From the NCBI GenBank assembly GCA_963788115.1, contig CAWBFD010000002.1, positions 1,003,109 to 1,027,108 of the forward strand: DNA of 24,000 nt. Direction: 5' to 3'. The stretch's first letter is position 1; every line of letters starts with the position of its first letter. This document shows positions 328-16,005 of this stretch, in pieces. The position numbers and the translations under genes were made by a program. The DNA is from an uncultured Actinomycetes bacterium (GTDB lineage Bacteria; Actinomycetota; Thermoleophilia; Solirubrobacterales; 70-9). Under the pieces are notes generated by a model. It was not told the DNA's origin. It ran no database searches and saw only the letters and a list, made by a program, of their open reading frames with translations.

Positions 328-1453
328 GCGTCAGACTGCCCGAGCCGATCTGAAGACGGCTCGTGGGGCGCGGGCGGCGGGCTTGGGGTTGATCCTGGAC
401 ATGGGAGCCGCGAACGCCGCGCCGAAACCGCGCCGGCCGATCAGCGCTGGGAAGCTGCTCGCGTTGCCGGAGCCGGAGCTCGCCGCGCACCCGCCTGCGA
501 TCGCACGGGCGGCCGCGACGATCGCCGGACTGAACAAGAGCGAGCACACGAAGCGGGGCTATGTCTCGGATCTGCTCGCCTTCTGCGAGTGGCACCCGGC
601 CGGGTACGAGCTCGACTGGGGCGCGATCACCTACTCGGACGTCGCCGACTTCGACGGGGCCATGGTCAAGCGGGGCCTCAAGCCCGCCACCCGTGCGCGC
701 CGGCTGGCGGCGCTCGGACGGTTCTACACCGAGCTCGTGCGCCGCGGACACGTGCAGGCCTCGCCATTGGTTGCGGTCGAGCGGCCACGCGTGGAGTTCT
801 CGCCGGCCGACAAGGGGCTATCCGCCGCCGAGCTGACCCGGCTCCTCGAGGCGGCCGAGCATCGCGGCCCCCAGGCTCATGCGCTCGTCTGCCTGCTCGG
901 CCTACCCGGCCTCCGCATCTCCGAGGCGCTCGGCATCGACGCGGGACAGGCCACGCGCGACGTCGACGGGCTCGCGGTGGTGCGATCGACGGTGAAGGGC
1001 GGCCGCTCGCGGACGATCACGATCGGAGAGCGCACGCTCGCCGCGATCGAGGCGCTCGAAGCGGAGCGGTCGCCCGGGGAGCCGCTGTTCCGCCGCGCGA
1101 CCAATGCGCGCGAGCAGGCCGCGATGGCCCGTCGCGGCGAGCCGGTCCGGCTCCACGTGCGGATGAGTCAGCAGATGGCGGGGGTCCTGATCGCGGAGCT
1201 AGCGGCCGAGGCGGAGCTTCGCGAGCGAAGCGGCAAGGCCAAGGTCGTGACTCCGCACACCCTGCGCCACACCGCCGCCTCGCTGATGTATGACGAGACC
1301 CGCGATCTGCGCGCGGTTCAGGAGCAGCTCGGCCATGCGTCGCCGGCGACCACGCAGCGCTACGACCGCGGCCGGCGGAAGGAGGCAGCCGCGGCGCTCG
1401 CGGCGGCGGACCGGGCGATCGGTAGGTCTGGGCGGCCTCCGCAAAGTGGCTAG
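302..1453 (+). CDS. Tyrosine recombinase / phage-type site-specific integrase
   Basis: The catalytic signature is visible: LRISEAL (Arg), HTLRHTAAS (His-x-x-Arg), LGHASPATTQRY (His plus nucleophile Tyr). An N-terminal core-binding-like segment is present (TKRGYVSDLLAFCEW, RRLAALGRFY). Start set at ATG 302 because GGAGG (289-293) lies 8 nt upstream; ATG 287 and ATG 401 are in-frame alternatives. The gene overlaps the hydrolase 3' end by 26 nt. Confidence 0.9.
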   Translation: MKSLPVRAERQTARADLKTARGARAAGLGLILDMGAANAAPKPRRPISAGKLLALPEPELAAHPPAIARAAATIAGLNKSEHTKRGYVSDLLAFCEWHPAGYELDWGAITYSDVADFDGAMVKRGLKPATRARRLAALGRFYTELVRRGHVQASPLVAVERPRVEFSPADKGLSAAELTRLLEAAEHRGPQAHALVCLLGLPGLRISEALGIDAGQATRDVDGLAVVRSTVKGGRSRTITIGERTLAAIEALEAERSPGEPLFRRATNAREQAAMARRGEPVRLHVRMSQQMAGVLIAELAAEAELRERSGKAKVVTPHTLRHTAASLMYDETRDLRAVQEQLGHASPATTQRYDRGRRKEAAAALAAADRAIGRSGRPPQSG

Positions 1454-1499
1454 GCGAAAGTGGCGTCACACCGCTCGTGCGCCTGCTTGTTCACCGCGC

Positions 1500-1688
1500 C
1501 TATGCCGGCGCCGGCACGAAGTGCTTGAGCTCGACGTCGCCGCGGTCGAGGGCGAAGCGCACGCCCTCTTCCGCGAGCCGGTGTGCCTCCTCGTAGGTGT
1601 CGGCAACAACGGTCCAGTTCGGAACCTCGGGTGACGTCGCCACCCAGGTGTCGTCGTCGTGCTCGTAGATCACGCGGATTCGGTCCAT
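1500..1688 (-). CDS. HicB-N-terminal-like (UPF0150/DUF1902-like) small protein, antitoxin-type module
   Basis: 62-aa ORF with AGGAG 9 nt upstream of ATG 1688, starting 24 nt after the RHH gene stop. RVIYEHDDDTWVATSPEVPNWTVVADTYEEAHRLAEEGVRFAL resembles the toxin-neutralising N-domain of HicB-family antitoxins (from memory). Confidence 0.55.
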   Translation of the reverse strand: MDRIRVIYEHDDDTWVATSPEVPNWTVVADTYEEAHRLAEEGVRFALDRGDVELKHFVPAPA

Positions 1689-1712
1689 GTCTCGTCGCTC
1701 CTGAAGGTCACC

Positions 1713-1991
1713 TCAGCGAACCTCAAGATATCTGCGCAGCGCTTTCCGAATCACCGATGACGTCGTTTCGTGGTCCCGCGTTGCCCGCTCGGTGAGCGCC
1801 TTGCGCAGCTCCGGTTCCAGCCTGACCGACTCAACGCTGGCCGGACCCGAGCCAATCGGCGGCCGACCACCGCGCCGGCGCAGCGTCTCTTCGACGTCGT
1901 AGCCGGCCTCAGCCGTGCCGGCGACCTCCTCTACGAGCTCCTCGGTGATCTCTTTGCCTGTCGTCGTCCTGCCGTAGCCCCTCTTCGCCAT
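1713..1991 (-). CDS. Ribbon-helix-helix (CopG/antitoxin-type) DNA-binding protein
   Basis: The C-terminal VRLEPELRKALTERATRDHETTSSVIRKALRRYL is a typical RHH (beta strand plus two helices). The upstream AEAGYDVEETLRRRGGRPPIGSGPA segment is typical of actinobacterial CopG-like antitoxin proteins. GGAGG lies 9 nt upstream of ATG 1991; in-frame ATGs at 1997 and 2027 are alternatives. Confidence 0.75.
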   Translation of the reverse strand: MAKRGYGRTTTGKEITEELVEEVAGTAEAGYDVEETLRRRGGRPPIGSGPASVESVRLEPELRKALTERATRDHETTSSVIRKALRRYLEVR

Positions 1992-2409
1992 GTTCATCAG
2001 CCTCCGGGTAGCAGCGGCCAACCTCATATTCCTCTTGGCTTATCGCGTTGTCGCTCTCGCACTCCGCCGACTCCCCGCTGAGACTGGAAACGCAGCTCTC
2101 AGAATCAGACTTGATCAGTAGGAAGTAGGCGGCAGCCCCGCAAGCGACCAAGATAACCGTGCCGAGAGCGAGAACTCGAGTTTGGGAATGCGCAGCGTCA
2201 AGGTAGTGAGAGCCCAGTCCGCGCGTGTCCGGATTGTCCAAGCTGATCGCCTTCTGGCTTACCCGCAGCGCCGCGCGCCGGCAAGGGGGATCCGCATGGC
2301 GCCGATCGCACGAGTCTGGGGCCTGATCCGCGGTCATCAAGTGACGGGATCGGCTGACGCGTTGCTCGTATCGCTCACCGCAGACCTCTCGATGAGGTGC
2401 GGGTAGTGA

Positions 2410-3111
2410 TCACCGTCGGGCCCTTCCTCTTCCGACGCTGTGAATCACCGGATGAACGGTGATCCTGCGGCTGTAATCCATATGGACGCGGCGGACCGTG
2501 TAGGCACGCCATCCGGTCACCGTCACCGTATATGTCCAGTCGTTTCCACTGCGGCTCCAGTCCTTCGAGATCCGGCCTTGCGAGCAACATCCGAGGTATC
2601 CGCTCGCGCCGGTGTCGATACTGCGAGCATCCCCCGGAAGCTCGAAGTGATAATGGGCGATGGCGTAGCGACCACCCCAGCAGTCAAGCTGGAGCTCGCC
2701 ATAGAAGCCATCGAGGTAGCAAGGCCCCTGGCGGGATCGCGAATCGGTCTCGGTGCCGCTTCGCGTGCTGCTGTAGTGGCGCCACTGGTGGCGGGTGACG
2801 CGCTTATGGATTCCTCGGCAGGTCAGGTAGATGGGCTTCCCAGCGCGCGGCGTGCGGTAGCCAAAGCGGATCTTCGACGAGGAAAAGCGAGTCACCGGCC
2901 GGATCGATGTATAGGTTCGGGTTCCATCGTTCTTTAGTGCCCGCCCATGACAACTCCATCCGGAGCCGAACTTCCAACCATGCAGCGTTTCTGCTGTGAA
3001 CCCGAACGGGCCAATATTGGAAATGTTCAGCTCTTGGCCCGCGCTGGCGCTGCTAGCGCTCAGTGAGAGCGCCAGAAGAGTAAGGCCACAGGCAAGTACG
3101 GCCTTTTTCAC
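2410..3111 (-). CDS. Secreted Cys-containing protein of unknown function
   Basis: 233 aa. The GTG start overlaps the stop of the upstream gene (GTGA at 3108-3111). Signal peptide MKKAVLACGLTLLALSLSASSASA/GQE. The mature part has six Cys (SCHG, TCRG, PCYLDG, LDCWGG, GCCSQG). I recognise no domain. Confidence 0.7.
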   Translation of the reverse strand: MKKAVLACGLTLLALSLSASSASAGQELNISNIGPFGFTAETLHGWKFGSGWSCHGRALKNDGTRTYTSIRPVTRFSSSKIRFGYRTPRAGKPIYLTCRGIHKRVTRHQWRHYSSTRSGTETDSRSRQGPCYLDGFYGELQLDCWGGRYAIAHYHFELPGDARSIDTGASGYLGCCSQGRISKDWSRSGNDWTYTVTVTGWRAYTVRRVHMDYSRRITVHPVIHSVGRGRARR

Positions 3112-3743
3112 GCTACCTCCACTGTCGTAACTCGTTCTTCATGTAGGTCGACTGTTTGCGGGTCCCGGCGTCTGAACGCCAGCACCGCTGACAGAACGAC
3201 CATCGCTACGCCTGCGCCGAGCGTCAGGTAAATCCCCCAGCCCGGCTCAGCAATGTCGATCGTGCGTCCGAGAAGTTGCGCCGTGTCGTTATCCGAGATC
3301 TCCGATAGGACGCGAATGCTGTCGCCCGCGACGAACAGTCCGACGAGCAGCGGCCAGACCAATGCTCCTCGGGCTCGGGTCTTCGCAAAGGCCCATAGCG
3401 AGCCGAGCGCGGACAGTGCGCCGAGAATGAACCAGATGCCGTCCACGTCCATCCCGCTCTGGCTCACTAATGCGTTCGTGACCCACGGTCCGAACGACCC
3501 GACGATGATCCCCAAGATGGCGAGGCCCATCATCCAGAACTGACGAGGCTGTTCGGCCAGGACACCGACGATGCGGTTGGCCACGTCGTTGCCGGGCGCT
3601 TGAGCTGTGACCGTCTCGCCTTCGCGGCGATGGTCGGTCCAGCTCTCCCCATCCCACCAGCGTTCATCGCGCCCTTTGGGGTCGCGGTACCAGCCGGCTG
3701 CTGGCAGTTCGGTCATGTGTCCCACGTGCTCGTTCATGTGCAT
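3108..3743 (-). CDS. DUF2510-domain membrane protein
   Basis: The N-terminal AGWYRDPKGRDERWWDGESWTDH is the DUF2510 GWYPDP...RWWDG..WT motif. About four hydrophobic helices follow (FWMMGLAILGIIVGSFGPWV, GIWFILGALSALGSLWAF, ALVWPLLVGLFVAG, GWGIYLTLGAGVAMVVLSAVLAF). ATG 3743 has AAGG 7 nt upstream; ATG 3716 is an alternative start. Confidence 0.8.
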   Translation of the reverse strand: MHMNEHVGHMTELPAAGWYRDPKGRDERWWDGESWTDHRREGETVTAQAPGNDVANRIVGVLAEQPRQFWMMGLAILGIIVGSFGPWVTNALVSQSGMDVDGIWFILGALSALGSLWAFAKTRARGALVWPLLVGLFVAGDSIRVLSEISDNDTAQLLGRTIDIAEPGWGIYLTLGAGVAMVVLSAVLAFRRRDPQTVDLHEERVTTVEVA

Positions 3744-3814
3744 CTGATTGCCTTATCGGCAGTTCGCCGTCATACTTAAACGTATGCGGTCGAGTGCAGA
3801 CGCTCCGAGCAGAC

Positions 3815-3827
3815 ATGCGTCACGCAT
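3815..3827. promoter_or_regulatory. Perfect palindrome ATGCGT-c-ACGCAT, candidate operator in the divergent promoter region
   Basis: Read directly: atgcgtcacgcat at 3815-3827. A third TATGCG half-site lies at 3783-3788 and a CATAC-n6-GTATG inverted repeat at about 3771-3786. All sit in the 103-nt gap between the DUF2510 gene start (3743, minus) and the XRE start (3847, plus). Confidence 0.4.
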
Positions 3828-3846
3828 ATCGAATACAACTCCGGGC

Positions 3847-4168
3847 ATGGAGGCCGGGGAGGTTCCGCGTCCGTTTTTGCCCTGGCTGGGGCGCGCCTGT
3901 CGCCAGGCGCGCGAGGAGCGGGGGGTGGTCCAGGTGAGGATCGCGGCGGCGATCGAGGTAAACCAGGCGACGATCGCGCGGTTTGAGGACGGCAGCGCCT
4001 GGCCGCGGCGCCCCGAGGAGGTGCTTGATGGCCTACGCCAGCGAGCTCGACATGGACGTGCGCCTGATCTGGGTTCGCGCCCTGGTCATGTGGTTCGAGC
4101 ACGAGCCGGTCTTAGAGCAGGAGAGTCAGGAGCGGATTCGGGCGGCGCTCGAGCGGCTGCGGATCTAG
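3847..4168 (+). pseudogene. XRE-family helix-turn-helix regulator interrupted by a 1-nt frameshift near 4024-4030
   Basis: Frame 1 reads MEAGEVPRPFLPWLGRACRQAREERGVVQVRIAAAIEVNQATIARFEDGSAWPRRPEEVL. High GC3 then switches to frame 2, which reads MAYASELDMDVRLIWVRALVMWFEHEP...RLRI-stop at 4166-4168. Joined, the two pieces form one contiguous XRE HTH domain. Frame 1 downstream of 4027 has poor GC3 and an R/A-rich tail. Confidence 0.6.
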
Positions 4169-4196
4169 GGCGGGGGTCGATAGTGGGTCGGCTGCC

Positions 4197-4221
4197 GTCC
4201 GCTCAGGGCAGGCGGACATTT
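4197..4221 (+). terminator. Weak hairpin after the XRE gene: GTCCGC-n9-GCGGAC followed by ATTT
   Basis: Read directly: gtccgc at 4197-4202, gcggac at 4212-4217, attt at 4218-4221. The stem is only 6 bp and the T-run is short. Confidence 0.3.
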
Positions 4222-4427
4222 GCGCGAAGGTCCGGGGCCCGTGCGAGGCTCGTCGATCCCAATCCTCGTCTGCGGTCCGCGCGATGGTTGCGGTCCCGGT
4301 GAGAATCTCAATGAAGGGCTCGACCGGGAACCCACCTCCCTCCAGCCACTCGAAGGGTGAATGGGCCGTCGCGCGCCGGGAAACTCATCGCGGGGCCGTC
4401 GGGCTGCTGGACAGGCGGCGGGCCCGC

Positions 4428-6092
4428 TCAGACCGGTCGTGCGGCGCTTGCTGCCAAGCGGGTCTCGACCACCGTCTCCGCCTCGGCCGCACTCTCGCTG
4501 TAGCCGCTCACGGTGGGCACGAAGTGGCGTCGATCGAGCGCGTAGAGCGTCAGCGGCGTGCGCGCTCGGACCGTCGTGATGCGTGGGACATCGCGCAGCA
4601 GCGCGATCTCGCCGAAGGAATCGCCATCCGAGAGGAGGCTGAGCAGGCGCCCATTCTTCGTCACCTCGACCTCTCCGGAGACGATCACGTAGAAGCTGTC
4701 GCCCACCTGCCCCTGCTCGATCACGGTCCCGGCGGGCTCGATCGATTCCTCACGCACGTTACGGGCGAGATGCTCGATCGTGGAGACCGGCAGGGGCCGG
4801 AGCATCGTCACCTGGCGGAGGCGGTCGATGATGTCCGCCTGCGCGCCAAGCCCATCGTCCACCCTGACGAGGCGCGACCAGGCGAGGGCGACGACGGCAG
4901 GAGTCATCAGCCCGATTGCCACCAGCGCCCCCCTGATCCCGAAGAGGTAGATGAGAAGTGGCGTGATAATGGCCCCGAGGCCAACGGCGAGTGCCACCAG
5001 GCTCTCCAGCGCGCCGAACACCCGCGCCAGAATCTCATCGGGCATGAGGCGAGGGAACAGCGTGAAGTAGCCGAGATCCACCAGAGCGTTCCCGGCGCCC
5101 ACGATCGCGAGCATGACCAGGGCGATGAGCTCGGAGGGGAAGACCCCGATCATGGCGAGCGGCGTGCCCCAGAGCGCGATCCCCAGCCCTGTGTAGGCCG
5201 CGAGGCGTCGGCTCCCGACCAGGATCGAGGCTCCGAGCGATCCCACCACGGCGCCGACGCCGATGGCCGCCGTCAGGACGCCCACCCCCGAGTCCCCGGT
5301 CTCGAGGAGCTCGATGGCGACCACCACGGTGAACACGTTGAGCGCTCCCCGGGTCACCGCCTGGACCGCGCCCAAGCCGAACAGCATTGTCACATCGCGT
5401 TGTGCCGCGATCGCGCGTAGGCCCTCCGCGGTGTCGGCCGCAACCCGAATCGGGGCGGGCGGCGCCTCGCGCGGCGCGGGCTCGTAATCGATCAGGCTCA
5501 CCAAGAAGGCCGACCAGAGCGATAGCACCGCCGTAAGCACGAAGACCGCCTCGGGGCCGCGGACGTCGAGCAGCAACGCTGCGAGCAGGGGGCCGATGAG
5601 CGTGCTGGCGGAATCGAGCAGCCCCCGCGAAGCGTTCGCGGCGGTCAGCTCCTTCGGGGTCTCGCACAGCGCCGGCAGGAGCGCCGAGTGCGCGGGACGG
5701 AAGGCCGTGAACGGGATCGTCGCGATGACCGCGAGCAAATAGACGAAGACGACCGACAGATCCACGGCCATCACCACCGCGGCCGCCCCCACCGCGGCTG
5801 CCCGCATAACCCCGATCCAGATCAATACCCGATCGCGGCGAACGCGGTCGGCTACCGCCGTCGCGAATGGGGCGACAAGTGCCGAGGGGAGCATGCGGAT
5901 CAGCGCCACGATGCCGACGGCGGTAGCGCCCCCGTCCCGGAAAGCCACGACGCCCAGCGCGACCGTGAAGGACCACTCGGCCGCGTAGGCAGAGCCAAAG
6001 GCCAGCTGAGCGCGGCGCAGGTCCGGGCGGCGCAGGTTCGAGGCGAGCGCGGCGCCCCCCTCCGCCAACCGTCTTCCGACGGCGTCGATCAT
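4428..6092 (-). CDS. MFS transporter (EntS/MFS_3-like) with C-terminal cyclic-nucleotide-binding domain
   Basis: 554 aa. The first ~410 aa are hydrophobic with multiple (about 12) TM segments. The last ~130 aa form a CAP_ED-type CNB domain (GDSFYVIVSGEVEVTKNG...GDSFGEIALLRDVPRITTVRA...LYALDRRHF). Confidence 0.9.
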   Translation of the reverse strand: MIDAVGRRLAEGGAALASNLRRPDLRRAQLAFGSAYAAEWSFTVALGVVAFRDGGATAVGIVALIRMLPSALVAPFATAVADRVRRDRVLIWIGVMRAAAVGAAAVVMAVDLSVVFVYLLAVIATIPFTAFRPAHSALLPALCETPKELTAANASRGLLDSASTLIGPLLAALLLDVRGPEAVFVLTAVLSLWSAFLVSLIDYEPAPREAPPAPIRVAADTAEGLRAIAAQRDVTMLFGLGAVQAVTRGALNVFTVVVAIELLETGDSGVGVLTAAIGVGAVVGSLGASILVGSRRLAAYTGLGIALWGTPLAMIGVFPSELIALVMLAIVGAGNALVDLGYFTLFPRLMPDEILARVFGALESLVALAVGLGAIITPLLIYLFGIRGALVAIGLMTPAVVALAWSRLVRVDDGLGAQADIIDRLRQVTMLRPLPVSTIEHLARNVREESIEPAGTVIEQGQVGDSFYVIVSGEVEVTKNGRLLSLLSDGDSFGEIALLRDVPRITTVRARTPLTLYALDRRHFVPTVSGYSESAAEAETVVETRLAASAARPV

Positions 6093-6156
6093 GGCCCGAG
6101 CGCCTCAGCCCGGTGACCGCCTCGGCGCTGGGGCCCGCAGCTCGCGGCGACGATGG

Positions 6157-6900
6157 TCACCACATCGAGTACGCCAGCGACCGCGCCTCGCTCGCGTTCC
6201 CTCCGGGCGCGCCGGGAAGCCCGGGCAATGGGACCGGGCCACGGCAGAGATATGGCTCGCCATGGCGAACGCCGATCATCGCTCCGAACCAGCGCGCCCT
6301 CACCTCCAACAGCTCCAGGAAGTCGCCGCCGCTCAGCGCCGTCGCCGGATCGCCGCCATCGGGGGAGAACTGGCTGCGGTAGCAGCCCACCGCCGCCCCC
6401 TTCTGCTCCCAGACCTCGGAGATGTCCACCACGAAGGAGGGCTCGAAAGGCGAGTGCGCCATATAGGAGAACTGGCGCGCGGGACGGTGTACGCCGCCGC
6501 TGCCAACCCGGCCCACGCCCGCCGCGAAGCAGCCCTCCCTGACTATCCTCCCCGCCGCCTCGTGATCGGGGTGGCGATCGGTGTCGTTGGGGGCCAGGAC
6601 GGTGTGTGGCCTGGCGTCGCGAATCACATCGACCACCCGCGCCACCGCCTCGCGCGACCGCCCGAGCTCGCCGTCGGGCAAGCCCAGCGCGATCCGCTCG
6701 CTGAGCCGGAGAGTCTGCGTCGCCGCCTCCCGCTCCGTGGCACGACCTGCTGGGGTCCCCCGAGTTGCCCGCTCTCCGTTCGTCAGGTCGGCGACACCGA
6801 CTCGCAGCCCCTGCCGCACCGCGAGCGCCAGCGCACCGCCGCAGCCGATCTCCGCATCGTCGGGATGGGGGGAGAAGGCGAGGACGTCGAGCGGGTCCAA
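6157..6900 (-). CDS. bshB1: Bacillithiol-type GlcNAc-malate deacetylase, BshB1-like (PIG-L/LmbE family)
   Basis: VLAFSPHPDDAEIGCGG...GVADLTNGE...DRHPDHEAAG...FVVDISEVWEQKGAAVGCYRSQF matches the BshB1/PIG-L motifs (HPDD, DxHPDH). The TTG start at 6900 lies one nt after the upstream stop (TGAgTTG). The gene sits in an operon with a BshA-like gene. Confidence 0.8.
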   Translation of the reverse strand: MDPLDVLAFSPHPDDAEIGCGGALALAVRQGLRVGVADLTNGERATRGTPAGRATEREAATQTLRLSERIALGLPDGELGRSREAVARVVDVIRDARPHTVLAPNDTDRHPDHEAAGRIVREGCFAAGVGRVGSGGVHRPARQFSYMAHSPFEPSFVVDISEVWEQKGAAVGCYRSQFSPDGGDPATALSGGDFLELLEVRARWFGAMIGVRHGEPYLCRGPVPLPGLPGAPGGNASEARSLAYSMW

Positions 6901-6901
6901 C

Positions 6902-8065
6902 TCAGCGCCCCAGGAGATAGCTCACCATCAGGCTGTCCGCGACAAGACCGGTGCCGTCGGGGTCGCGGGACGTCAGGCTCTCGGGCACGATCATCGGTAT
7001 CGGCTCCTTTTCGAGGGCCTCGCGGAGCACTCTGTTCAGCACCATGCCGTAGATCGCGCTGCTCCTGCCGGCAACCACTCCACTCGCCAGGTCGTTGATG
7101 AGCGTGGGTAACAGCACGTCAGGACTCCACCGTCGAGTCTGGGCGATTTCATCGAACGACAGCTGTCGGCGACCGAGCCGAAACCGGTAGGTGGCCCCGC
7201 ACCGACAGGTCGCGACCGCGTAGGTGCCGTCCGTTTCGTCGCGGCGCCGGAGCGGGAGACGGGTTGCGTCGGATGCGCAAGAGATGCGCAGCGGCAGGTA
7301 GTCGTCGGCGAGCGGATGGAGCAGGGGGTCGATCCCGCCCTCCCTGAGCTCGAAGAGGGCGCGATTGAAGACCTGGATCACTCGCGGCAGGACGTTAATG
7401 CAGGCCTCGACCTGCTCCGTCAGGTCCTTCTCCTCCAGCAGCGTCGAGAGGCGTACCGGCGCCAATCTGATGCCGTTCTCGGCGAGGAGGAGGTCGGTGA
7501 CCTCGGCGCTCAGGTCCGCGAGGGTGTCCGCAGGGCTCCCCAGGAGGACGGCGCGAAGGTGCGCATAACGGTCCAGCCCGCGGGCCCCGACGCCGGCTTC
7601 GCCCAGGTATGTCCTGAGCCGATCCAGTGCCTTCCTGAGCTCTCGCTTCTCGATCGGGATGAACCGGGGCTCGCGATCCTTGCTCCCGGGTGGAGCCATG
7701 GAGACGCCGACCCGCCCGCCTCGCCGTGGCCACGAGATCACGGTCATCCGCTTGTCAGAGCCGGCGCGGTCCACATCGACCCAGAGCCCGCACCCTCTGA
7801 CATCGTGGTCCGCCTGCAACTCGCCGAGAGCGGCGAGCTTGGCGAACACCGACGCGCCGTAGTCGACGGACAGCTGCTGGCCCATGTATACGGTGGCGCT
7901 GGCACGGCCCTCGTCGCGGCCGGAGTGCCGGGAGAGGCGAGCGAGCGCGTCCCTCCCCGGCGGGGCGATGGCCTCCAGGAAGAGGCCCCGGTCGAGGAAG
8001 ACACCCTCCTCGCGCAGGAGCGCCGCGCCTCGCTCGGACGCGGCGAGTTCCGATAGGGCGCTCAT
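6902..8065 (-). CDS. Short, divergent BshC-like protein (candidate cysteine-adding enzyme) lacking the C-terminal coiled-coil region; otherwise hypothetical
   Basis: 387 aa from ATG 8065, which overlaps the bshA stop (ATGA). Two motif resemblances to BshC from memory: VYMGQQLSVDYGASVFAKLAAL...LWVDVDRAGSD versus GGQQAGLLTGPLYTIHK...FWVAGEDHD, and SPDVLLPTLINDLASGVVAGRSSAIY versus the S.NV..RPL.Q..LPT.A.I.GPGE..Y region. Its position between bshA and bshB1 supports the call. That it is a real CDS is near certain; the functional call is tentative. Confidence 0.45.
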   Translation of the reverse strand: MSALSELAASERGAALLREEGVFLDRGLFLEAIAPPGRDALARLSRHSGRDEGRASATVYMGQQLSVDYGASVFAKLAALGELQADHDVRGCGLWVDVDRAGSDKRMTVISWPRRGGRVGVSMAPPGSKDREPRFIPIEKRELRKALDRLRTYLGEAGVGARGLDRYAHLRAVLLGSPADTLADLSAEVTDLLLAENGIRLAPVRLSTLLEEKDLTEQVEACINVLPRVIQVFNRALFELREGGIDPLLHPLADDYLPLRISCASDATRLPLRRRDETDGTYAVATCRCGATYRFRLGRRQLSFDEIAQTRRWSPDVLLPTLINDLASGVVAGRSSAIYGMVLNRVLREALEKEPIPMIVPESLTSRDPDGTGLVADSLMVSYLLGR

Positions 8066-9228
8066 ATGCAAGCCCCGCCGACCTGGCGGCCCGGGCGAGC
8101 GTCCCTTGCGCCTCGATCGACCAGGTCCCCGTACAGCTTCTCGTAGAGCGGCACGATTCTCTCGCAGGCGAAGCGAGCGGCCTGCCGCCTCGCGGCGCTG
8201 CCGACTCTGCGGCGCAGCGATGGGCGAGCGAGCAGCTCGGCCACCGCGTCGGTGGTGGGGGCGTGGGCGCCAACCGGAAACAGGTGGCCGGACGTTCCAT
8301 CACCGACCACCTCGGCGAGACCACCCACCCGGGTGGCGACCACCGGGATGCCACTCGCCATCGCCTCCGCCGCGGCCAGGCAGAAGCTCTCGACGACGCT
8401 GGTCATCAGCAGCAGATCGGTCTCAGGCAGGATCGTCGCGACGTCGGTCGTGGCGCCGAAGAAGCGCACGGCGTCTTCCGCGCCGGCCGCGGAGAGCATC
8501 GCTCTCAGCGCAGGCAGCCTCGGCCCATCTCCAACCAGCCACAGCTCGGCATCCATGCGGTCGCGGACCGAAAGGAAGACGTGGGCCAGGCTGCGAGGAT
8601 CCTTTACGCCCCGGAAGTTCGAGACGTGAACGATGCGAGGCCGGTCGCGATGGGGGGACTGCGTCGGCTTGAACCGGGTGATGTCGATGAAGTTCGGGAT
8701 GACCAAGGGCGGCTCGCGCAGGGCGAAGAGATGGCGGGCGAGCCGAGCGTGGTCGTGTGAGACGGTGGTGACCGCGGCGAGGGCGTGCAGGCTTTCGCTG
8801 AGCAACCGGCGCTGGGCCGGCTGCCGGCCGTGGATGCTGACGTCGGTGCCGTGAAGCGTCGCGACCGTCACCGGACCCGCTTCTCCAAGCCCGCGGGCTA
8901 ACGACGCGGCGACGTGCGCGAACGGGACCGCGTAGTGCGCGTGCAGAACCTGGAGGTGCTCGCGACGCGCAACGCCCGCCACGAACGAGCGGAACTCGGC
9001 TTGCTCGTTGCTGCTCCAGTCCACATTCAGGCCGACCGGGATGCCCCCGTTGGCAGGGGGAAGGAGGGTGTGCAGGACCACCCCGCTGTCTCTCAGCCAG
9101 TCTGCCACCGGCGGCCGGCGTGCCATCAGATGAACGCTGTGTCCGCGTTGCGCGAGCTCGCTCGCAAGGGTGCAGGCGATCCGGACGCTCCCCCCGATTC
9201 CGTTGTGGCAGAGGAGGCCGACCCTCAT
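8062..9228 (-). CDS. bshA: GT4 glycosyltransferase, BshA-like (N-acetyl-alpha-D-glucosaminyl L-malate synthase)
   Basis: The N-terminus MRVGLLCHNGIGGSVRIACTLASELAQRGHSVHLMARRPP matches the BshA pattern (C-x-P-x-x-GGS...RGH-x-VH). GT4 C-terminal motif: ESFCLAAAEAMASGIPVVATRVGGLAEVVGDGTSGHLF. ATG 9228 overlaps the upstream stop (ATGA). Confidence 0.8.
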   Translation of the reverse strand: MRVGLLCHNGIGGSVRIACTLASELAQRGHSVHLMARRPPVADWLRDSGVVLHTLLPPANGGIPVGLNVDWSSNEQAEFRSFVAGVARREHLQVLHAHYAVPFAHVAASLARGLGEAGPVTVATLHGTDVSIHGRQPAQRRLLSESLHALAAVTTVSHDHARLARHLFALREPPLVIPNFIDITRFKPTQSPHRDRPRIVHVSNFRGVKDPRSLAHVFLSVRDRMDAELWLVGDGPRLPALRAMLSAAGAEDAVRFFGATTDVATILPETDLLLMTSVVESFCLAAAEAMASGIPVVATRVGGLAEVVGDGTSGHLFPVGAHAPTTDAVAELLARPSLRRRVGSAARRQAARFACERIVPLYEKLYGDLVDRGARDARPGRQVGGACI

Positions 9229-12200
9229 CCAAGCGATCCGGGCTGGGTGGCCATTCTCTTCGCGAGAAGCATGAGAAGCGCCCGAGACACCTCCGGCTGG
9301 GCTTCCAGCAGTCGCTCGAGCTGCTCCTCCTCGAGCACGATCAGCCGCGCTGGGCCCCGAGCGACGATCGAAGCGCTCCGTGTCACCTTTCCGAGCGCCG
9401 CCACTTCGCCGATACAGGCCCCCCTTCCGCAGACCGTCAGCTCTTCCTCGGCGCCATCACGGCGCCTCAGGATCGAGACCTCCCCCTCGCGGATGACATA
9501 CACCTCACGTGCGGGATCGCCCTGAGAGGAGATCACGGTGCCGTCCTCCACGAGACGCTCCGATGCGAGCTTGGCCAGCGTCGCCAGTCGCGAATCGGGC
9601 AGCGAGGCGAAGATCTCCGTCCCCTTCATGAACTCCATCCTCTCCGACAGGCGGACCGCTGGGAGCGCGAGGAGGTTCGCGAACAGCCGGAAGGCCCCGG
9701 GCACCCCGGCGGCCAGCTGGCGGTAGAGCGAATAGCCGCAGTAGACATAGGTGCCGCGCCCGTAGTCGGCGACCATTAGCCCGCCGAGCCTAGGATCCTC
9801 GCCTGGATCGGCGCAAGCCAACAGCGGCCGGTAACGTCGATCCCACTCGCCAAAGAAGTACCGACCGCGCTCCTGGACCCACCCGTCGAAGTCCTCGTCC
9901 CGGATCTCGTTGGGCACGTGGAAGAGGGAGTGTTCGGGCGCGAGGAAGCGGACGGGGGCCCCCTCGTCGGTGACGCGATCGTGGGGCTCGCTGTAGCGGA
10001 AAGGGTACGGGGCCAAGCCTGGCGCCTGATAGCCGTACGGCTGATGCTGGACGATCAGCGTCCCCCCGCCTTCGATGTAATCCAGTACGCGGCGGGCGGC
10101 TGCCCGGAGCTGGGCACTCCTCGAGTAGGCACCAGGCCCAACCATGATCGCGTCGAAGCGAGAAAAGTCGAGGCGCTGGAGCTCCTCGTCGTCGACCACG
10201 TGGAACCGGGCCCCAAAGGGCTCCAGCAGCCCCGCCACGTCTTCCTCGTCGCCGGCGATGTAGGCGCAGTGCAGTGATCGAGCGAAGCGAGCCTGAATGA
10301 GATGAAGCTCGACCTCGGCGGGGCTGAGCAGGAAGGTCTCGCGAATGCAGCTCGCGGGATCGGGCTCGCCGGTGAGATGCGCGGGACCCATGCGCGCGGG
10401 CATGAGGCCCGTTGTGTAGCTACGCCCCTCCACGTGCACGCGATAGCGAAGCGACTCGCTGCCCGGCGAAGCGGTGGCGGGAATGGTCAGTGCGAACGAA
10501 TAAGGCCGACTCTCGTCGCCGCCGAGCGAGAGGTCGATCCCGCTCGGATCGACGGCCGTACCCGAGGGGGCCTCGAGCTCGAGCCGGCCGCTCAGGGTCC
10601 TCTCGGTGTGGTTGCGCACCAGCACGTCGAGCTCGATCTGGATCTGATCGGCGATTGGGTCCGGCTCGAACGGCTGTCGTAACGGCCGGCCTCTCCCCTC
10701 GCGCCGTTCATGGCGCGCCTGCGCACACACCACGGCGGAGTCGGAGCGTAAGGAGACAGGGGGGATGACGGCGGGGTAGAGCTCGCGGAAGCCGCCGGGA
10801 AAAGCGCTGCGCGCGACGGCCGGGGCTCGGATCACGAGACGCTTTCCTTCCACCTGAATCTGGCACTGGGCCTCGAAGCGAGGGGGGCGGAAGGGACGCG
10901 AGCAGTATCGCTCCGGCGGCCAGCGGTATGCGTACGGTTCCGGTGGCTCCACCAGCCAGTACGGGCAGCTGAGCGCAGCCCCTTGCGACACGCTGACCGT
11001 GAACCCCGTCTCGACGTCCGCGCCGGGCCTCGCCGCAGAGCCGCCGTCTCCGTCGTTGGCCGTTTGCACCCGGCAGTCAGGCGAAACGCGGAGCCGTGTG
11101 GCCTCGATATCGACGTCGAGTGGCCCGAAGTTCCAGAGGCGAGTCCGGACTTCGAACGTTTGTCCCGGGATGACGTGCACGGCCCCACTGCGGCACTCCA
11201 GTCGTAGGCCGAGGCATGCCGCGGCCGTCTCCTCCAGATCGTCGAGCTTCCGCAGCAGATACGTCGACAAGGCCACCCTAGGTGGCCCCGCGAGGCGGGA
11301 GTCGAGCTGTGAGACGGCCGCGCGGGTGGCCGATATTGCCGAGAGCAGATGGCGTCCCGCCGCGGTGGCGTCTGGGCTCCGGTAGGCGGCGAGCGCTCCC
11401 TCGATATGTCCCTTGATCCCCTGTAGTTGCTCCCGCAGCCACCCGGAGTCCTCCCCCGCATGGTCGGCGACCCCGGTGAGCTCGGGATCAAACCCCTCGA
11501 GGAGGCCCCCTTGCCGGCTGACATCCCCGCCTTCGTCGCGACTCGAGTCCTCTATCAGCCGGTAGTAGTAGACGAAGCGGCCGGGCCCGGGAAGCAACGC
11601 CATTCCTTGCGAGATGTGCTGGTTGAGCGCCGACCAGCCCTGCTCCTGAAAGGTTCGACCACCGATTGGATCCAGCGCTCCCGTGTCGATGCGGATCAGT
11701 CCCTCCCGCTCCAGGTCATCCCGCAAGGCCCCTAACGACGCCAGGTCCTGTTCGGGCATCCAGTCCCCGCCCACCGACTGATAGAGCCGCCGCGGCTGCC
11801 AAGCCTCCAAGCCCAGCCGACGGAGCTCCGGGAACAGATTGGGGTCGCCGGCCGCCCGAAACGCCTCGGCCGTCACTGCCCCCACGGCCTGATGGTGGCC
11901 GTGCTCGTCGGCGGGCTGTCCGGTCCAGCGGGAGATGACGATCTCCGGCTGCACAAGGCGTATGGCCCGAACGATCTCGCGAAGTACGGCCTTTCTTCCC
12001 CACTTCGCGAGCGTGTCGGAGCCGCTCTTGCTGTAGCCGAAGTCATAGAAGGGGCCGAACAGGGCCTCCGCTCCGTCGATGGCACGAGCGTCTTCGCTCT
12101 CCCAGCTGCGGAAGACTCCCAGCGCCTCGCCTCGGTAGGAGTTGAGCCGATTCTGCCCAGCCTCTCCCCGCGTGGCGGACCAGTAGACGGTGCGCACGCA

Positions 12201-12356
12201 GAGGCCGTGTGCGAGATAGGCGAGGAGACCGCTGTCCTCGTCGTCGGGGTGCGCTCCCACCTGAAGCACCGCACCGGCCATCGGCAGCGACCGGAGCCGA
12301 TAACTCAAGCCGGCGGCGTCGAGGGATGCCCCTTCCTGGCCAACCCGCCACCCCAC
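9225..12356 (-). CDS. Large LmbE/PIG-L-family deacetylase with GATase1-like C-terminal module and an appended cyclic-nucleotide-binding domain
   Basis: 1043 aa. N-terminal PIG-L motifs: VGAHPDDEDSG, ATRGEAGQN, DEHGHHQA. Residues ~700-890 (FDAIMVGPGAYS...GGTLIVQHQ...APYPFRYSEPHDRVTDEGAPVRFLAPEHSLF...DFDGWVQERGRYF...GTYVYCGYSLYRQLAAGVPGAFRLFANLL) match the conserved C-module of the ~800-aa LmbE-family proteins I recall from Bacteroidetes. The last ~130 aa form a CNB domain (VYVIREGEVSIL...GACIGEVAALGKVTRSASIVA). The GTG start at 12356 is preceded by GGAGGAG. Confidence 0.85.
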   Translation of the reverse strand: MGWRVGQEGASLDAAGLSYRLRSLPMAGAVLQVGAHPDDEDSGLLAYLAHGLCVRTVYWSATRGEAGQNRLNSYRGEALGVFRSWESEDARAIDGAEALFGPFYDFGYSKSGSDTLAKWGRKAVLREIVRAIRLVQPEIVISRWTGQPADEHGHHQAVGAVTAEAFRAAGDPNLFPELRRLGLEAWQPRRLYQSVGGDWMPEQDLASLGALRDDLEREGLIRIDTGALDPIGGRTFQEQGWSALNQHISQGMALLPGPGRFVYYYRLIEDSSRDEGGDVSRQGGLLEGFDPELTGVADHAGEDSGWLREQLQGIKGHIEGALAAYRSPDATAAGRHLLSAISATRAAVSQLDSRLAGPPRVALSTYLLRKLDDLEETAAACLGLRLECRSGAVHVIPGQTFEVRTRLWNFGPLDVDIEATRLRVSPDCRVQTANDGDGGSAARPGADVETGFTVSVSQGAALSCPYWLVEPPEPYAYRWPPERYCSRPFRPPRFEAQCQIQVEGKRLVIRAPAVARSAFPGGFRELYPAVIPPVSLRSDSAVVCAQARHERREGRGRPLRQPFEPDPIADQIQIELDVLVRNHTERTLSGRLELEAPSGTAVDPSGIDLSLGGDESRPYSFALTIPATASPGSESLRYRVHVEGRSYTTGLMPARMGPAHLTGEPDPASCIRETFLLSPAEVELHLIQARFARSLHCAYIAGDEEDVAGLLEPFGARFHVVDDEELQRLDFSRFDAIMVGPGAYSRSAQLRAAARRVLDYIEGGGTLIVQHQPYGYQAPGLAPYPFRYSEPHDRVTDEGAPVRFLAPEHSLFHVPNEIRDEDFDGWVQERGRYFFGEWDRRYRPLLACADPGEDPRLGGLMVADYGRGTYVYCGYSLYRQLAAGVPGAFRLFANLLALPAVRLSERMEFMKGTEIFASLPDSRLATLAKLASERLVEDGTVISSQGDPAREVYVIREGEVSILRRRDGAEEELTVCGRGACIGEVAALGKVTRSASIVARGPARLIVLEEEQLERLLEAQPEVSRALLMLLAKRMATQPGSLG

Positions 12357-12489
12357 CTACGCTCCTCCAAGCAAGTGCACGGGTTCGTCGTCTACGTCAG
12401 CATCGTCGGGTAACGGACACAGCCACCCTATCCGAAGCCTTCCGCTCCAACAAACGTCGCAGACCGGGCCAGACTGCCTAACTCCGCCG

Positions 12490-13428
12490 CTATTCGCACC
12501 CCGCTCCGTCGCCGTTCGCGTCGAGCCCGTGCGGGTCGGACCCGGTGACCGCAACGGTGCCGTTCAGATCCGCGCAGTCGACGTCCGGCGGGTATGTCGG
12601 CACGCAGGGGGAGTAGCCGGACTCGCATCCACTGCCGGCGCCGCCGGCGCTTGCGACGCCCCGCGCGCCGCCACCATCCGGGTTGCCGCCCGCACCGCCG
12701 CCGCCTCCTCCGACGGGCTTGTCGGTGTCGCCGCCACAGGTCTTTGGTGACCAGAGCCCGCGGGCGTGCCGGCGGGCGTCGGCCGCCAGGCGCCGGAACA
12801 GCTCCGCGTACTCGACGTTGGGCGGGATCGTGAGCGGCGCCGCATACCCCTCCTTGACGAGGGCCGCGTTGAAGAACGTTCCTCCCGCTAGCCAGAGATA
12901 CACGAGGTCTCGGCCGTAGTCGTCCACGCGCTCGACCCCTGGCAGGTAGTAGACGGTCTCTCCGGGCGTCATCAGGCGCGAGGCGAACGCCGAGGCCTCC
13001 TCCCCGTAGCACTCCTCGCCGAAGTACACCTCGGGCGTGTCGACCCCGATCAGGCGCGAGGCGCCGATTCCCGCGAGCTCGACCGTGTCCCCGTCGGTGA
13101 TCGAGACCACGGTCGTCCGCTTGGTGCGATCGGGGATACCCAGGGCCTCGGACTCCGGCTTCTCTTGCTCCGGCCGCTCGGTTCGCTGGTCGTCATCGCC
13201 TGCACCGGACTGACGCGGCCGCCGGCGCGAGCCGGCGTGGCGATCGCCCCCCTCTTGGCCGCCATCGATCGGCGCCTCGTTGCCGGCGGCGTCGCCCGCC
13301 GAGGCGGCTCGATGGTCGGGGCGGGGATCCTCCCCACCGTCGGAGATCACGGCGACCGCGACCACCACGGTGATCGCCAAGGCAATCAACGAGCCGAGCC
13401 AGATTCTTCCTGATTGTCGCTGCCGCAT
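12490..13428 (-). CDS. Membrane-anchored thermonuclease (SNase) family nuclease with C-terminal Excalibur-like calcium-binding domain
   Basis: N-terminal TM anchor (IWLGSLIALAITVVVAVAVI), then a charged linker. SNase core: VVSITDGDTVEL...RLIGVDTPE...GRDLVYLW...FNAALVKEGYA. Gly-rich linker. C-terminal DCADLNGTVAVTGSDPHGLDANGDGAGCE matches the Excalibur motif. Confidence 0.9.
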   Translation of the reverse strand: MRQRQSGRIWLGSLIALAITVVVAVAVISDGGEDPRPDHRAASAGDAAGNEAPIDGGQEGGDRHAGSRRRPRQSGAGDDDQRTERPEQEKPESEALGIPDRTKRTTVVSITDGDTVELAGIGASRLIGVDTPEVYFGEECYGEEASAFASRLMTPGETVYYLPGVERVDDYGRDLVYLWLAGGTFFNAALVKEGYAAPLTIPPNVEYAELFRRLAADARRHARGLWSPKTCGGDTDKPVGGGGGGAGGNPDGGGARGVASAGGAGSGCESGYSPCVPTYPPDVDCADLNGTVAVTGSDPHGLDANGDGAGCE

Positions 13429-13748: not shown

Positions 13749-15842
13749 CTAGCGGGTCCGCGCGACCTCGGCCGCGAACCAGACCGAGAGCCCGCCGGCG
13801 ACGCTGCGCAGTGCCCGCGAGAGCCGGGGGTCGATCCGGTCGGATGCGCTTGCCTGCGTCGCGGCAACCCAGGTCAGACCCGCGCCCAGCCCGAGCGCCA
13901 CCGCGCGTCCTGCGCGCACGACTTTCTGCTCGAGCCGGGCCGAGGTGAACTTGACCTCGAGCTGCCGCCCCGGCCGGCCGCCGACGACGGTCGCCAGGCC
14001 GTCGGAGACCTGGCTTGCCCGGTAGCGCAGCCGCTCCACCTCGTAGATGATCTGCTGTGGATCCAGGCGCCCGGCCAGCCGCCGGGAGATGCTGCGCAGG
14101 AAGAAACGCCGCGCCTCCTCGATCGGGTCGAGCTCCGGGGCGAGCTCGGAAACCGCGCCGTCGACCTGGGCCAGCGCCTTGCCGACCATGACGAAAGCGG
14201 GCGGCAAGGGCACTCCGTGGCGAACCGAGATCGCCGTGAGCTGGTTGAGCAGCTCGACCAGGTTGAGATCTTGGAGTGGGCGACCACGGATCTCGGCGAC
14301 CACGGCCGCGATGTCGTTGCGATAGTCCTCGACATCGACGTCGGTGGCGTCCGCCACAGCACCCAGATCGAGCGAGACATCGGCGAGCAGATCGACGTCG
14401 CCCTGTGCGAAGGCGAGCAAAACGAGGAACAGCTGGCGGCGCGTCTGGCCCTCCAGGCGGCCGACCATGCCCAGGTCGAGCAGCCAGATCCTGTTGTCGG
14501 CCCAGAGCATGTTGCCCGGGTGGGGGTCGGCATGGAAGAAGCCGTCCTCGAGGACCTGCTTGTAGTAGGCCTGGATCAGCTGACGCGCCGCCTCGGTGCG
14601 TTCCGGGCCCTCCGGGGCATCGAGCAGCGGAACCGCGTCGACGATCTCATCCATGACCAACAGGCGCGCGGTCGAGAGCTCCCGGTGACAGCGCGGGACG
14701 CCGATGCGGTCATAGCCGGCGACGATCTCGCCCATGCGGACCATGTTGCGCGCCTCCTCGCCGAAGTCGAGCTCGTCGCGAAGCGCGCTCGAAACCTGCT
14801 GGGCGAGCGACGGGATGTCGATGATCCGGTTTAACCGCTGCGAGCGCGACGCAGGCCTGATGATCATCTCGAGCAGCGCGAGGTCGTTCTCGACCACCTC
14901 CTCGGCCTCGGGGCGCTGGACTTTGACCACCACGCGGTGGCCGTCGGCCATTCGCGCCCGATGCACCTGGGCGATCGTCCCTGCGGCGAGCGGCTCGGGA
15001 TCGAGCGAGGAGAAGACGTCCTCCCAGGGAACGGCGAGCTCGCGCTCCATCATCGACACGACCTCCGCCTCGGACATCGGCGGAACGTCCGACTGCAGGG
15101 CGGCGAGCTCGGCGACGTACTCCTCGGAGATCAGGTCGGGACGCGTCGAGAGGACCTGGCCGAGCTTGCCGAAGGTCGGTCCCAGACTCTCGAACGCCTC
15201 CCGCAGCCGCCGCGGCCCGTCCGGGTCACCCTCGAGGCGGAGCAGCCGCCCGGAGAGCTGGCGGATCCCGACCGGACCGAGGACGCGGCTGATCTCGCGC
15301 GCCCGGGCGTGCAGCCGACCCGAGTCGAGGGTTCCCTCGGACGCCGGCTCGCCGGTGGTCGTGTTGACGACCACCACCGTGCAGTCGGCGAGATGGGTGA
15401 CGCGATTGGCGATGTTGCCGAGCAGGAACTGCTTGCGACCGCGCATACCCGAGCTGCCGACGACGACGACGTCGGCGTCGGCCTCTCGGGCGGCGGCGAG
15501 GATCACCGTTGCCACGTCCTCGCCCGACTCGACCACGGCGCGGGCGCGGATCCCGTCGGTGGGCAGGGAGCGCTCGAGCGCCGCGCGCAGCCGCGCATGC
15601 GCGGCCTCGTCCGGGGCCGGTGCGGCCGGCTCCGACCCGGCCTCTGGTACGCCGTTCTCGGCGGCGGCATCCATCGCAACCGATTCGGGCTTCGAGGCGG
15701 GCTTGACCACCTGGATCGCGAGCAGCTCCGCGCCCGTCGACCTGGCAAAGCTCGCCGCCCATTCGACCGCGAGCGCGGCTCCGGCGCTGCCGTCGGTAGC
15801 TACCGCGACCAGGCTCGTTTCTGCACCCATCGAAGCGAGCAT
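13749..15842 (-). CDS. Universal-stress-protein domain fused to an ABC1/UbiB-family atypical kinase, with two C-terminal TM helices
   Basis: USP part: LVAVATDGSAGAALAVEWA...DVVVVGSSGMRGRKQFLLGNIANRVTHLADCTVVVV. UbiB part: LGPTFGKLGQVLSTRPDLISEEYVAELAALQSDVPP, AAGTIAQVHRARM, VVVKVQRP, DELDFGEEARN, FFHADPHPGNMLW. Start set at ATG 15842 (ATG 15830 is also possible). The ORF extension to 16049 is R-rich and overlaps the upstream gene. Confidence 0.85.
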   Translation of the reverse strand: MLASMGAETSLVAVATDGSAGAALAVEWAASFARSTGAELLAIQVVKPASKPESVAMDAAAENGVPEAGSEPAAPAPDEAAHARLRAALERSLPTDGIRARAVVESGEDVATVILAAAREADADVVVVGSSGMRGRKQFLLGNIANRVTHLADCTVVVVNTTTGEPASEGTLDSGRLHARAREISRVLGPVGIRQLSGRLLRLEGDPDGPRRLREAFESLGPTFGKLGQVLSTRPDLISEEYVAELAALQSDVPPMSEAEVVSMMERELAVPWEDVFSSLDPEPLAAGTIAQVHRARMADGHRVVVKVQRPEAEEVVENDLALLEMIIRPASRSQRLNRIIDIPSLAQQVSSALRDELDFGEEARNMVRMGEIVAGYDRIGVPRCHRELSTARLLVMDEIVDAVPLLDAPEGPERTEAARQLIQAYYKQVLEDGFFHADPHPGNMLWADNRIWLLDLGMVGRLEGQTRRQLFLVLLAFAQGDVDLLADVSLDLGAVADATDVDVEDYRNDIAAVVAEIRGRPLQDLNLVELLNQLTAISVRHGVPLPPAFVMVGKALAQVDGAVSELAPELDPIEEARRFFLRSISRRLAGRLDPQQIIYEVERLRYRASQVSDGLATVVGGRPGRQLEVKFTSARLEQKVVRAGRAVALGLGAGLTWVAATQASASDRIDPRLSRALRSVAGGLSVWFAAEVARTR

Positions 15843-16005
15843 AGGTCGGCTGCGGGGCGGGCGCAATAACGGGCGGTCCGTGGGCGCGGCTGGTTCCGAA
15901 GCAACGACCTCTCGCGTGTGACTCGTCCGCGGAGGCAGCGAGACGTGATTACTGAGGATCGGGCGTTCTTGGTCGGCCAGGAGTCGATGAGCGGCCGCCG
16001 CAAGC

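Follow-up and report, generated by a model that had tools for sequence, protein, structure and literature searches.

The window analyzed here, a 24,000-nucleotide (nt) stretch of contig CAWBFD010000002.1 from an uncultured Solirubrobacterales bacterium (G+C ~70%), carries between positions 4428 and 12356 five consecutive open reading frames (ORF), all on the minus strand, that appear to encode a variant of the pathway for the low-molecular-weight thiol bacillithiol. In order of translation they specify a giant protein joining an LmbE/PIG-L domain to a cyclic-nucleotide-binding (CNB) domain, a BshA-like family 4 glycosyltransferase (GT4), a short BshC-like protein that we refer to as the middle protein, a BshB1-type deacetylase and a major facilitator superfamily (MFS) transporter with a CNB domain of its own. 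The first-pass annotation of the window had placed five such genes at these coordinates, and the ORF list and translations confirm all of them. The first four constitute a translationally coupled and conserved operon.

The coupling is evident at each junction. The giant starts at a GTG codon at 12356, just after a Shine-Dalgarno-like GGAGGAG run; its stop codon overlaps the GT4 start in an ATGA (9228-9225, read on the minus strand), and the GT4 stop overlaps the start of the middle gene in a second ATGA (8065-8062), both as originally described. For the middle gene the ORF lister selected an upstream TTG at 8071 (389 amino acids, aa), whereas homologues start at the ATG at 8065 instead. The middle gene is followed by bshB1 across the sequence TGA-g-TTG, with a gap of 1 nt and TTG as the bshB1 start; here the reported sequence was right and the reported coordinates (6900-6904) were not, the junction spanning 6904-6898. 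The spacer of 64 nt noted between bshB1 and the MFS-CNB gene stands (6093-6156). A promoter and terminator scan returned no terminator-like or sigma-70-like sites in 4200-12700, an outcome that is compatible with a single transcript and constitutes weak evidence in high-GC Actinobacteria, and inspection by eye of the 133-nt region upstream of the giant gene identified no convincing CRP-type TGTGA-N6-TCACA site.

Table. Features of the operon and of its flanks in the 24,000-nt window; coordinates are window positions.
Feature	Position	Strand	Details
Giant LmbE-CNB protein	9225-12356	-	1043 aa
LmbE/PIG-L catalytic domain of giant	11862-12266	-	aa 31-165; Pfam PIG-L 1.7e-12
CNB domain of giant	9300-9554	-	aa 935-1019; cNMP_binding 1.1e-18; PF00027 67.4 bits, cut-off 27.5
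BshA-like GT4	8062-9228	-	388 aa
Short BshC-like middle protein	6902-8065	-	387 aa from ATG at 8065
G-Q-Q motif of middle protein	7874-7882	-	aa 62-64, then conserved K76
Zinc-knuckle-like motif of middle protein	7199-7279	-	C263-x2-D266...C287-x-C289; four-stranded beta insertion (AlphaFold2 model)
BshB1-type deacetylase	6157-6900	-	247 aa
MFS-CNB transporter	4428-6092	-	554 aa
CNB domain of MFS protein	4521-4745	-	aa 450-524; PF00027 63.8 bits, cut-off 27.5; cassette FGEIALLRDVPRITTV
Tyrosine-recombinase/phage-integrase gene	287-1453	+	
DUF2510 protein	3108-3743		
HTH_31 protein	3748-4302		
Staphylococcal-nuclease-domain protein	12490-13428		133 nt upstream of giant
Usp-ABC1 atypical-kinase fusion	13749-16049		
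DDE-transposase fragment ORF	16006-16548		overlaps NorB 3' end
NorB, quinol-type nitric oxide reductase	16545-18881	-	fused cytochrome-c-like domain
Hemerythrin-domain protein	18917-19783		just upstream of NorB gene

The 247-aa protein is a predicted BshB1-type N-acetylglucosamine (GlcNAc)-malate deacetylase, as the initial annotation had it. It scores 255.0 bits against the BshB1 equivalog model TIGR04001, passing the cut-off of 182.5, it carries the LmbE zinc motifs PHPDD and HPDH, and its best relatives in the PDB are TT1542, Bacillus subtilis BshB1 (6p2t) and BC1534. The GT4, composed of the Pfam domains Glyco_transf_4 and Glycos_transf_1, covers positions 1-374 of the 375 in the BshA equivalog model TIGR03999, with the next-best model ~150 bits lower. 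In the PDB it is matched best by BshA of B. anthracis, B. subtilis and Staphylococcus aureus (1e-53 to 1e-37; 2jjm and 3mbo at ~1e-53, 5d00 at 7e-47, 6d9t and 6n1x at ~3e-37), whereas MshA structures are matched only at 1e-13 to 5e-15. The segments TLHGTD, PNF, VSNFRGVK and ESFC...E align with B. anthracis BshA and match the functional residues listed for S. aureus BshA (H118, T120, N171, K209, E280-S-F-G and E288; secondary source PMC10361700), with the G of ESFG replaced by C in the window protein; H126, N179, S203, K209, E280, S281, F282 and E288 are invariant in 24 orthologues. The description of this gene as BshA-like appears essentially right, and L-malate is its presumed acceptor.

The middle protein is BshC-like by fold and genomic company, lies outside the BshC sequence family and lacks the BshC coiled coil. 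Even at E<=10 it has no sequence match in Pfam, in NCBIfam or, by phmmer, in the PDB. A database search retrieved 86 relatives, nearly all of ~385 aa, unnamed or 'hypothetical' and without a Pfam domain, and when 1.84 billion representatives were searched with a profile only 170 proteins emerged, namely this short family and a subfamily of 416-495 aa, with no canonical BshC among them. Its AlphaFold2 model, built on the family alignment, has a predicted local distance difference test score (pLDDT) of 90.6 and a predicted template modelling score of 0.89. Foldseek ranks B. subtilis BshC (4wbd) first among solved structures (E 6.9e-13, probability 1.0, query TM 0.63), followed by class I lysyl-tRNA synthetase (6e-9) and then MshC (4.5e-3). 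Since B. subtilis BshC is made up of a Rossmann-like region (PF10079, residues 1-378) and a coiled coil (PF24850, residues 380-539), the middle protein, which ends at residue 387 and shows in its model neither long C-terminal helices nor a counterpart of PF24850, corresponds to the Rossmann-like domain of BshC alone.

Within the family, Q64 of the G-Q-Q motif is retained in 137 of 138 members and K76 in 133, and both hhalign, run with 15 Bacillaceae BshC and a reference sequence checked against 4wbd, and hmmsearch pair this G-Q-Q...K with the invariant GGQQ...K of BshC, at scores that are not significant. A second, highly conserved motif, RWSPDV.LP...G.S.A.Y, has its putative counterpart in the RP..E.LLPT...GPGE..YW of BshC, near the C-terminus of the Rossmann-like region. 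In targeted hmmsearch the two motifs align colinearly with those of BshC at weak scores (per-sequence p 0.003 to 5.5e-5), and the distant 416-495-aa subfamily, itself without a Pfam match, forms a weak bridge to BshC (hmmsearch, per-sequence p ~5e-5). The family also carries the cysteine-rich motif listed in the Table (among 138 members, C263 in 127, D in 115 and C in 14 at position 266, C287 in 124 and C289 in 122); this C-x2-(D/C)...C-x-C pattern recalls the zinc knuckles found in class I synthetases and may, by analogy, bind metal. Apparent fusions of BshA to the ligase, or of giant, ligase and BshB1 (a 767-aa ORF at 6855-9149 of locus L029, and proteins P0083, P0295 and P0301), were discarded as frameshift or assembly artefacts because their junctions read out of frame and are rich in Arg and Pro.

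The giant protein that heads the operon consists of the LmbE/PIG-L domain, a helical bundle, beta-sandwich domains, an alpha/beta domain (~aa 690-905) and the C-terminal CNB domain. Its family comprises 1264 hits of ~1010-1045 aa with the same architecture throughout, annotated at most as 'LmbE family deacetylase/CRP-like' or 'cyclic nucleotide-binding domain-containing protein'. In 33 homologues the two metal-binding motifs of the LmbE domain, AHPDDED and HGHHQA, vary little or not at all, and the beta-sandwich part has a weak Pfam match to NPCBM_assoc. The alpha/beta domain is strongly conserved and has no match in Pfam or in a PDB profile search; a glutamine-amidotransferase or ThuA-like identity considered for it found no support in these searches or in Foldseek. 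The AlphaFold2 model of the giant (pLDDT 77.6), submitted whole to Foldseek, returned CNB matches only.

That both this protein and the transporter end in CNB domains had been proposed at the outset, and both domains score far above the PF00027 cut-off (Table). The top sequence and fold matches of the giant domain are the CNB domains of PKA, PKG and CRP, and the CNB region of Pat is the best CNB-type NCBIfam match for the giant and the MFS protein alike. In the CNB fold, the Gly-Glu and Arg of the phosphate-binding cassette contact the cyclic phosphate. Both window cassettes keep Gly-Glu...Arg, in GEVAALGKVTRSAS for the giant and, read from the translation, in GEIALLRDVPRITT for the MFS protein; across the giant family the Gly is invariant, the Glu near-invariant (one Gln) and the Arg kept in most homologues. 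Both domains thus appear genuine members of PF00027, with cassettes that could plausibly bind phosphate and, presumably, a cyclic nucleotide. The transporter moiety (MFS_1 8.1e-23, cNMP_binding 1.5e-17) is DHA3/EntS/Mef-like and scores 149.8 bits against TIGR00900, under the cut-off. Over this gene and the NorB gene, which both encode polytopic membrane proteins on the minus strand, AT skew spikes to ~+0.31 (5001-6000) and ~+0.33 (17001-18000), presumably because of T-rich hydrophobic codons on the coding strand.

The conservation of the cluster was assessed on 33 loci bearing the middle gene, assembled through exact-protein look-ups and one scan of species-representative genomes and searched by tblastn with the five window proteins. 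A BshA-like match adjoins the middle gene at every locus except L016, where the contig ends upstream of the middle gene; L022 is the one complete locus that lacks a BshB1-like gene; and of 30 loci that extend far enough upstream, 27 contain the giant, which is absent beside the cluster in L030-L032. Chance does not account for such an arrangement. The middle gene therefore shows the co-localisation with bshA and bshB expected of a bshC. As had been anticipated, the four-gene order is conserved in relatives: the giant/BshA-like/short BshC-like/BshB1 cluster recurs at ~25 loci in Actinomycetota, Chloroflexota and one metagenome-assembled genome (MAG) labelled Deltaproteobacteria. Chloroflexota loci (L012, L014, L017 and L033) have the genes in a different order, which argues for selection on linkage and not for shared ancestry alone. 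Within Actinomycetota the middle gene occurs, among others, in Solirubrobacterales, Conexibacteraceae, Gaiellales, Pseudonocardiaceae, Micromonosporaceae and the cultured Nocardioides immobilis (CCTCC AB 2017083; L024); outside that phylum its hosts include Chloroflexia, Anaerolineae and one MAG each labelled Deltaproteobacteria, Planctomycetota and Rhodobacter. The representative closest to the window shares 91% identity and bears no label finer than Actinomycetota, and Solirubrobacterales MAGs come next, at 81% and below, so that the source probably belongs to the uncultured Thermoleophilia.

Two elements of the first-pass annotation did not withstand this comparison. The MFS-CNB gene, seen as one of two brackets of the module, is linked only in a close Solirubrobacterales-type clade (L004-L011) and is divergently oriented in L027, and the widest conserved unit is the pair of giant and BshA, not the five-gene set. 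Against TIGR03999, the GT4s adjoining giant homologues at other loci obtain 285-321 bits, and three distant giants, one in a Riflebacteria MAG and two on metagenome contigs without a classification, are each followed immediately by a GT4 that clears the BshA cut-off at 310-321 bits. The partners of the pair vary. The gene after BshA in L035 (11085-12997) encodes a GlmU-C-like hexapeptide acyltransferase; in L036 (7059-13701) the acyltransferase is fused to BshA (629 aa) and followed by BshB1, with a metallo-beta-lactamase (MBL)-fold gene, weakly similar to cyclic-nucleotide phosphodiesterases, immediately upstream of the giant. In L038 (4193-10068) the four-gene cluster contains an 844-aa giant devoid of a CNB domain and a 449-aa ligase, and in L037 a distant ligase relative sits beside a PhyH dioxygenase gene.

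Read as a whole, the operon would direct the synthesis of a bacillithiol-type metabolite, Cys-glucosamine (GlcN)-malate or a close analogue, and we consider this reading somewhat likelier to be right than wrong. The GT4 would make GlcNAc-malate from UDP-GlcNAc and the BshB1 enzyme would deacetylate it to GlcN-malate, two steps that are more likely than the reading as a whole. The 387-aa protein, a minimal ligase resembling class I aminoacyl-tRNA synthetases (aaRS), with a zinc-knuckle insertion and no coiled coil, would then add an amino acid, presumably cysteine; the chances that it is specific for cysteine are about even. The giant would contribute a second amidohydrolase of LmbE type, controlled by cAMP or cGMP via the C-terminal CNB domain; it could be a regulated deacetylase of GlcNAc-malate or, like Bca and Mca, an amidase of conjugates or of the thiol. 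In this clade the product or its S-conjugates would be removed by a CNB-gated MFS exporter. These specific roles of the two CNB proteins, and with them the presumed direction of regulation and export, are less likely than the overall reading. Since a CNB-bearing deacetylase heads the operon, a second messenger may govern its chemistry, and the giant family, uncharacterised and consistently linked to bshA, points to cyclic-nucleotide control of thiol metabolism. In its strongest form, the proposal would be that the 387-aa protein is the third bacillithiol enzyme of Actinomycetota and Chloroflexota and that the CNB-LmbE giant places the bacillithiol pool under direct cAMP/cGMP control, a combination that we put forward tentatively and regard as doubtful.

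A number of results weigh against a bacillithiol-type product. Of the match to TIGR03999 expected for the GT4, the full-length alignment stands and the curated cut-off does not, the score being 269.8 bits against 273.7 (~4 bits short); the equivalent E-value is reached by 9 of 24 cluster orthologues and missed by the other 15. The prediction of a short BshC-like protein, correct as to fold, fails both on the coiled coil and on family membership, in that neither the window protein nor any of 37 family members matches PF10079 or TIGR03998 at E<=10, a profile of the 37 sequences missed BshC (4wbd) when run against the PDB, and hhalign of the middle family with BshC gave a probability of 0.24% (E 0.26). 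The giant obtains 35.7 bits against the Mca model TIGR03446 (cut-off 277) and 22.2 bits against the BshB1 model, far under its cut-off, and has no match to BshB2 (TIGR04000, cut-off 195) in the NCBIfam scan; an amidase role would rest on functional analogy with Mca and Bca, with which it shares the general LmbE metal motifs. No BshC-like gene was detected within ~8 kb on either side of giant and BshA in the acyltransferase variants, and in L040 (1-4946) a distant ligase relative lies beside phosphoenolpyruvate (PEP)-mutase and thiamine pyrophosphate (TPP)-decarboxylase genes of phosphonate type. Moreover, Nocardioides, Pseudonocardiaceae and Micromonosporaceae are groups expected to make mycothiol.

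Several of these observations speak for the main rival explanation, under which the cluster makes a non-thiol GlcN-malate derivative, such as a compatible solute, signal or chelator, the ligase adds another amino acid or an acyl group, and the CNB proteins tune its level. The middle protein stands outside the BshC sequence family, and its use of cysteine is a presumption; a non-thiol product is conceivable because giant and BshA are at times accompanied by a GlmU-like acyltransferase, with no BshC-like gene in the examined stretch; the ligase family is not tied to thiols, since its distant relatives occur in a phosphonate-type cluster and beside a PhyH gene; and some hosts belong to the mycothiol lineages just named. 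Set against this, BshC is the closest solved fold of the ligase, ahead of aaRSs, the BshA and BshB1 matches are at equivalog level, and the CxxD/C...CxC motif would suit thiolate or zinc chemistry of the kind found in cysteinyl-tRNA synthetase and MshC. On balance we judge a non-thiol product unlikely, if less so than the remaining alternatives.

Quite improbable, in our view, is an ordinary bacillithiol pathway in which the CNB domains are degenerate, or bind a ligand other than cAMP or cGMP, and exert no second-messenger control. Many bacterial CNB-fold domains do bind other ligands, the cassette Arg is replaced in a few giant homologues, and the otherwise equivalent cluster of L038 manages with a giant that lacks the domain; yet both window cassettes retain Gly-Glu and Arg, the domains score 64-67 bits against PF00027, and the phosphodiesterase-like MBL-fold gene of L036 lies directly upstream of the giant. 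We attach just as little probability to the notion that giant and GT4 act on a larger glycoconjugate (envelope or exopolysaccharide GlcNAc) under cAMP control, the likeness to bacillithiol synthesis reflecting shared chemistry and not the product: although the beta-sandwich domains of the giant bear a weak likeness to carbohydrate-associated NPCBM_assoc, many glycoconjugate pathways employ members of the GT4 and PIG-L families and the window GT4 falls under the BshA cut-off, neither a signal peptide nor a transmembrane segment is evident in the translation or AlphaFold2 model of the giant, CNB domains reside in the cytoplasm, the GT4 aligns over the full BshA model with a score ~150 bits above the next best, BshB1 passes its equivalog cut-off, and no polysaccharide export or polymerase genes were seen in the window or the loci.

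On its 3' side the operon abuts a stretch (287-4302) that is probably an integrated mobile element. It carries the integrase gene, after which a region of lower G+C (0.62-0.63 versus ~0.70) encodes a small ribbon-helix-helix-like ORF, the DUF2510 protein and the HTH_31 protein. ARAGORN called a tRNA-Leu(CAG) at 4173-4261, overlapping the helix-turn-helix ORF; Rfam gave no match there at gathering score, nor at E<=1 on a 351-nt region, and the call is likely false or a decayed attachment-site remnant. Upstream of the giant lie the nuclease-domain gene and, farther away, the kinase-fusion gene, both probably outside the module because upstream neighbours differ in homologous loci. Beyond them, the NorB gene has the hemerythrin-domain gene just upstream and the transposase fragment overlapping its 3' end.

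Published surveys define the bacillithiol pathway by BLAST matches to canonical BshA, BshB and BshC (PMC6282198, PMC12719100), and in Actinobacteria the 2018 survey recorded mycothiol genes only, plus one glutathione case. On such criteria, which call for a BLAST-detectable BshC, genomes like the present one would be passed over as carriers of the full pathway. The bshC gene was itself originally found solely through its co-occurrence with bshA, and the BshC reaction has never been reconstituted in vitro (PMC5790435). Our literature search turned up no report of a short BshC and none linking bacillithiol to cyclic-nucleotide-binding proteins, the one co-mention being an unrelated Pseudomonas study. 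A cryptic BshC-fold ligase would explain 'orphan' bshA/bshB pairs and bring Thermoleophilia, other Actinomycetota and Chloroflexota within the range of bacillithiol-type chemistry; being shorter than BshC, closely tied to its operon partners and likely to hold a metal, it would offer a new handle on the BshC reaction. If the proposal holds in full, it would describe a minimal BshC that is invisible to sequence searches and provides a simpler enzyme for solving that reaction, as well as the first second-messenger-gated low-molecular-weight-thiol system, with CNB-LmbE accompanying bshA across several phyla.

Compared with the bacillithiol system of B. subtilis and other Bacillota (BshA, BshB1 and BshC), the same three chemical roles are apparently encoded here, in three contiguous and coupled genes, whereas bshC of B. 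subtilis is unlinked to bshA and bshB1 (PMC5790435). The third protein of the window differs from canonical BshC in lying outside PF10079/TIGR03998, in lacking the PF24850 coiled coil and in bearing a knuckle rich in cysteine; its hosts belong to Actinomycetota and Chloroflexota instead of Bacillota, and a CNB-fused LmbE protein heads the operon. The mycothiol system of Actinomycetes (MshA, MshB, MshC and Mca) follows the same logic, from a GT4 through an LmbE deacetylase to a class I aaRS-like cysteine ligase, and, like the present operon with its giant, includes a second LmbE-family protein, the amidase Mca, which doubles as a deacetylase. By score the window GT4 and deacetylase are nonetheless much closer to BshA and BshB1 than to MshA and MshB, the fold match of the middle protein to MshC (E 4.5e-3) is much weaker than to BshC, no MshD-like acetyltransferase is present, and the giant (35.7 bits versus a cut-off of 277) is far from the Mca model.

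Fusions of CNB domains are familiar from the cAMP-regulated acetyltransferase Pat of mycobacteria and from mycobacterial MFS-CNB proteins, so the MFS-CNB architecture is not new in itself. In these proteins an enzyme or transporter carries a CNB domain that serves as an allosteric switch, a role presumed for the window proteins too; here, by contrast, the partners are a multi-domain LmbE amidohydrolase and a DHA3-type MFS protein in a thiol-type operon. Relative to these known systems, the operon appears to be a variant of a known pathway to which two families so far uncharacterised contribute, that of the short BshC-like ligase and that of the LmbE-CNB giant.

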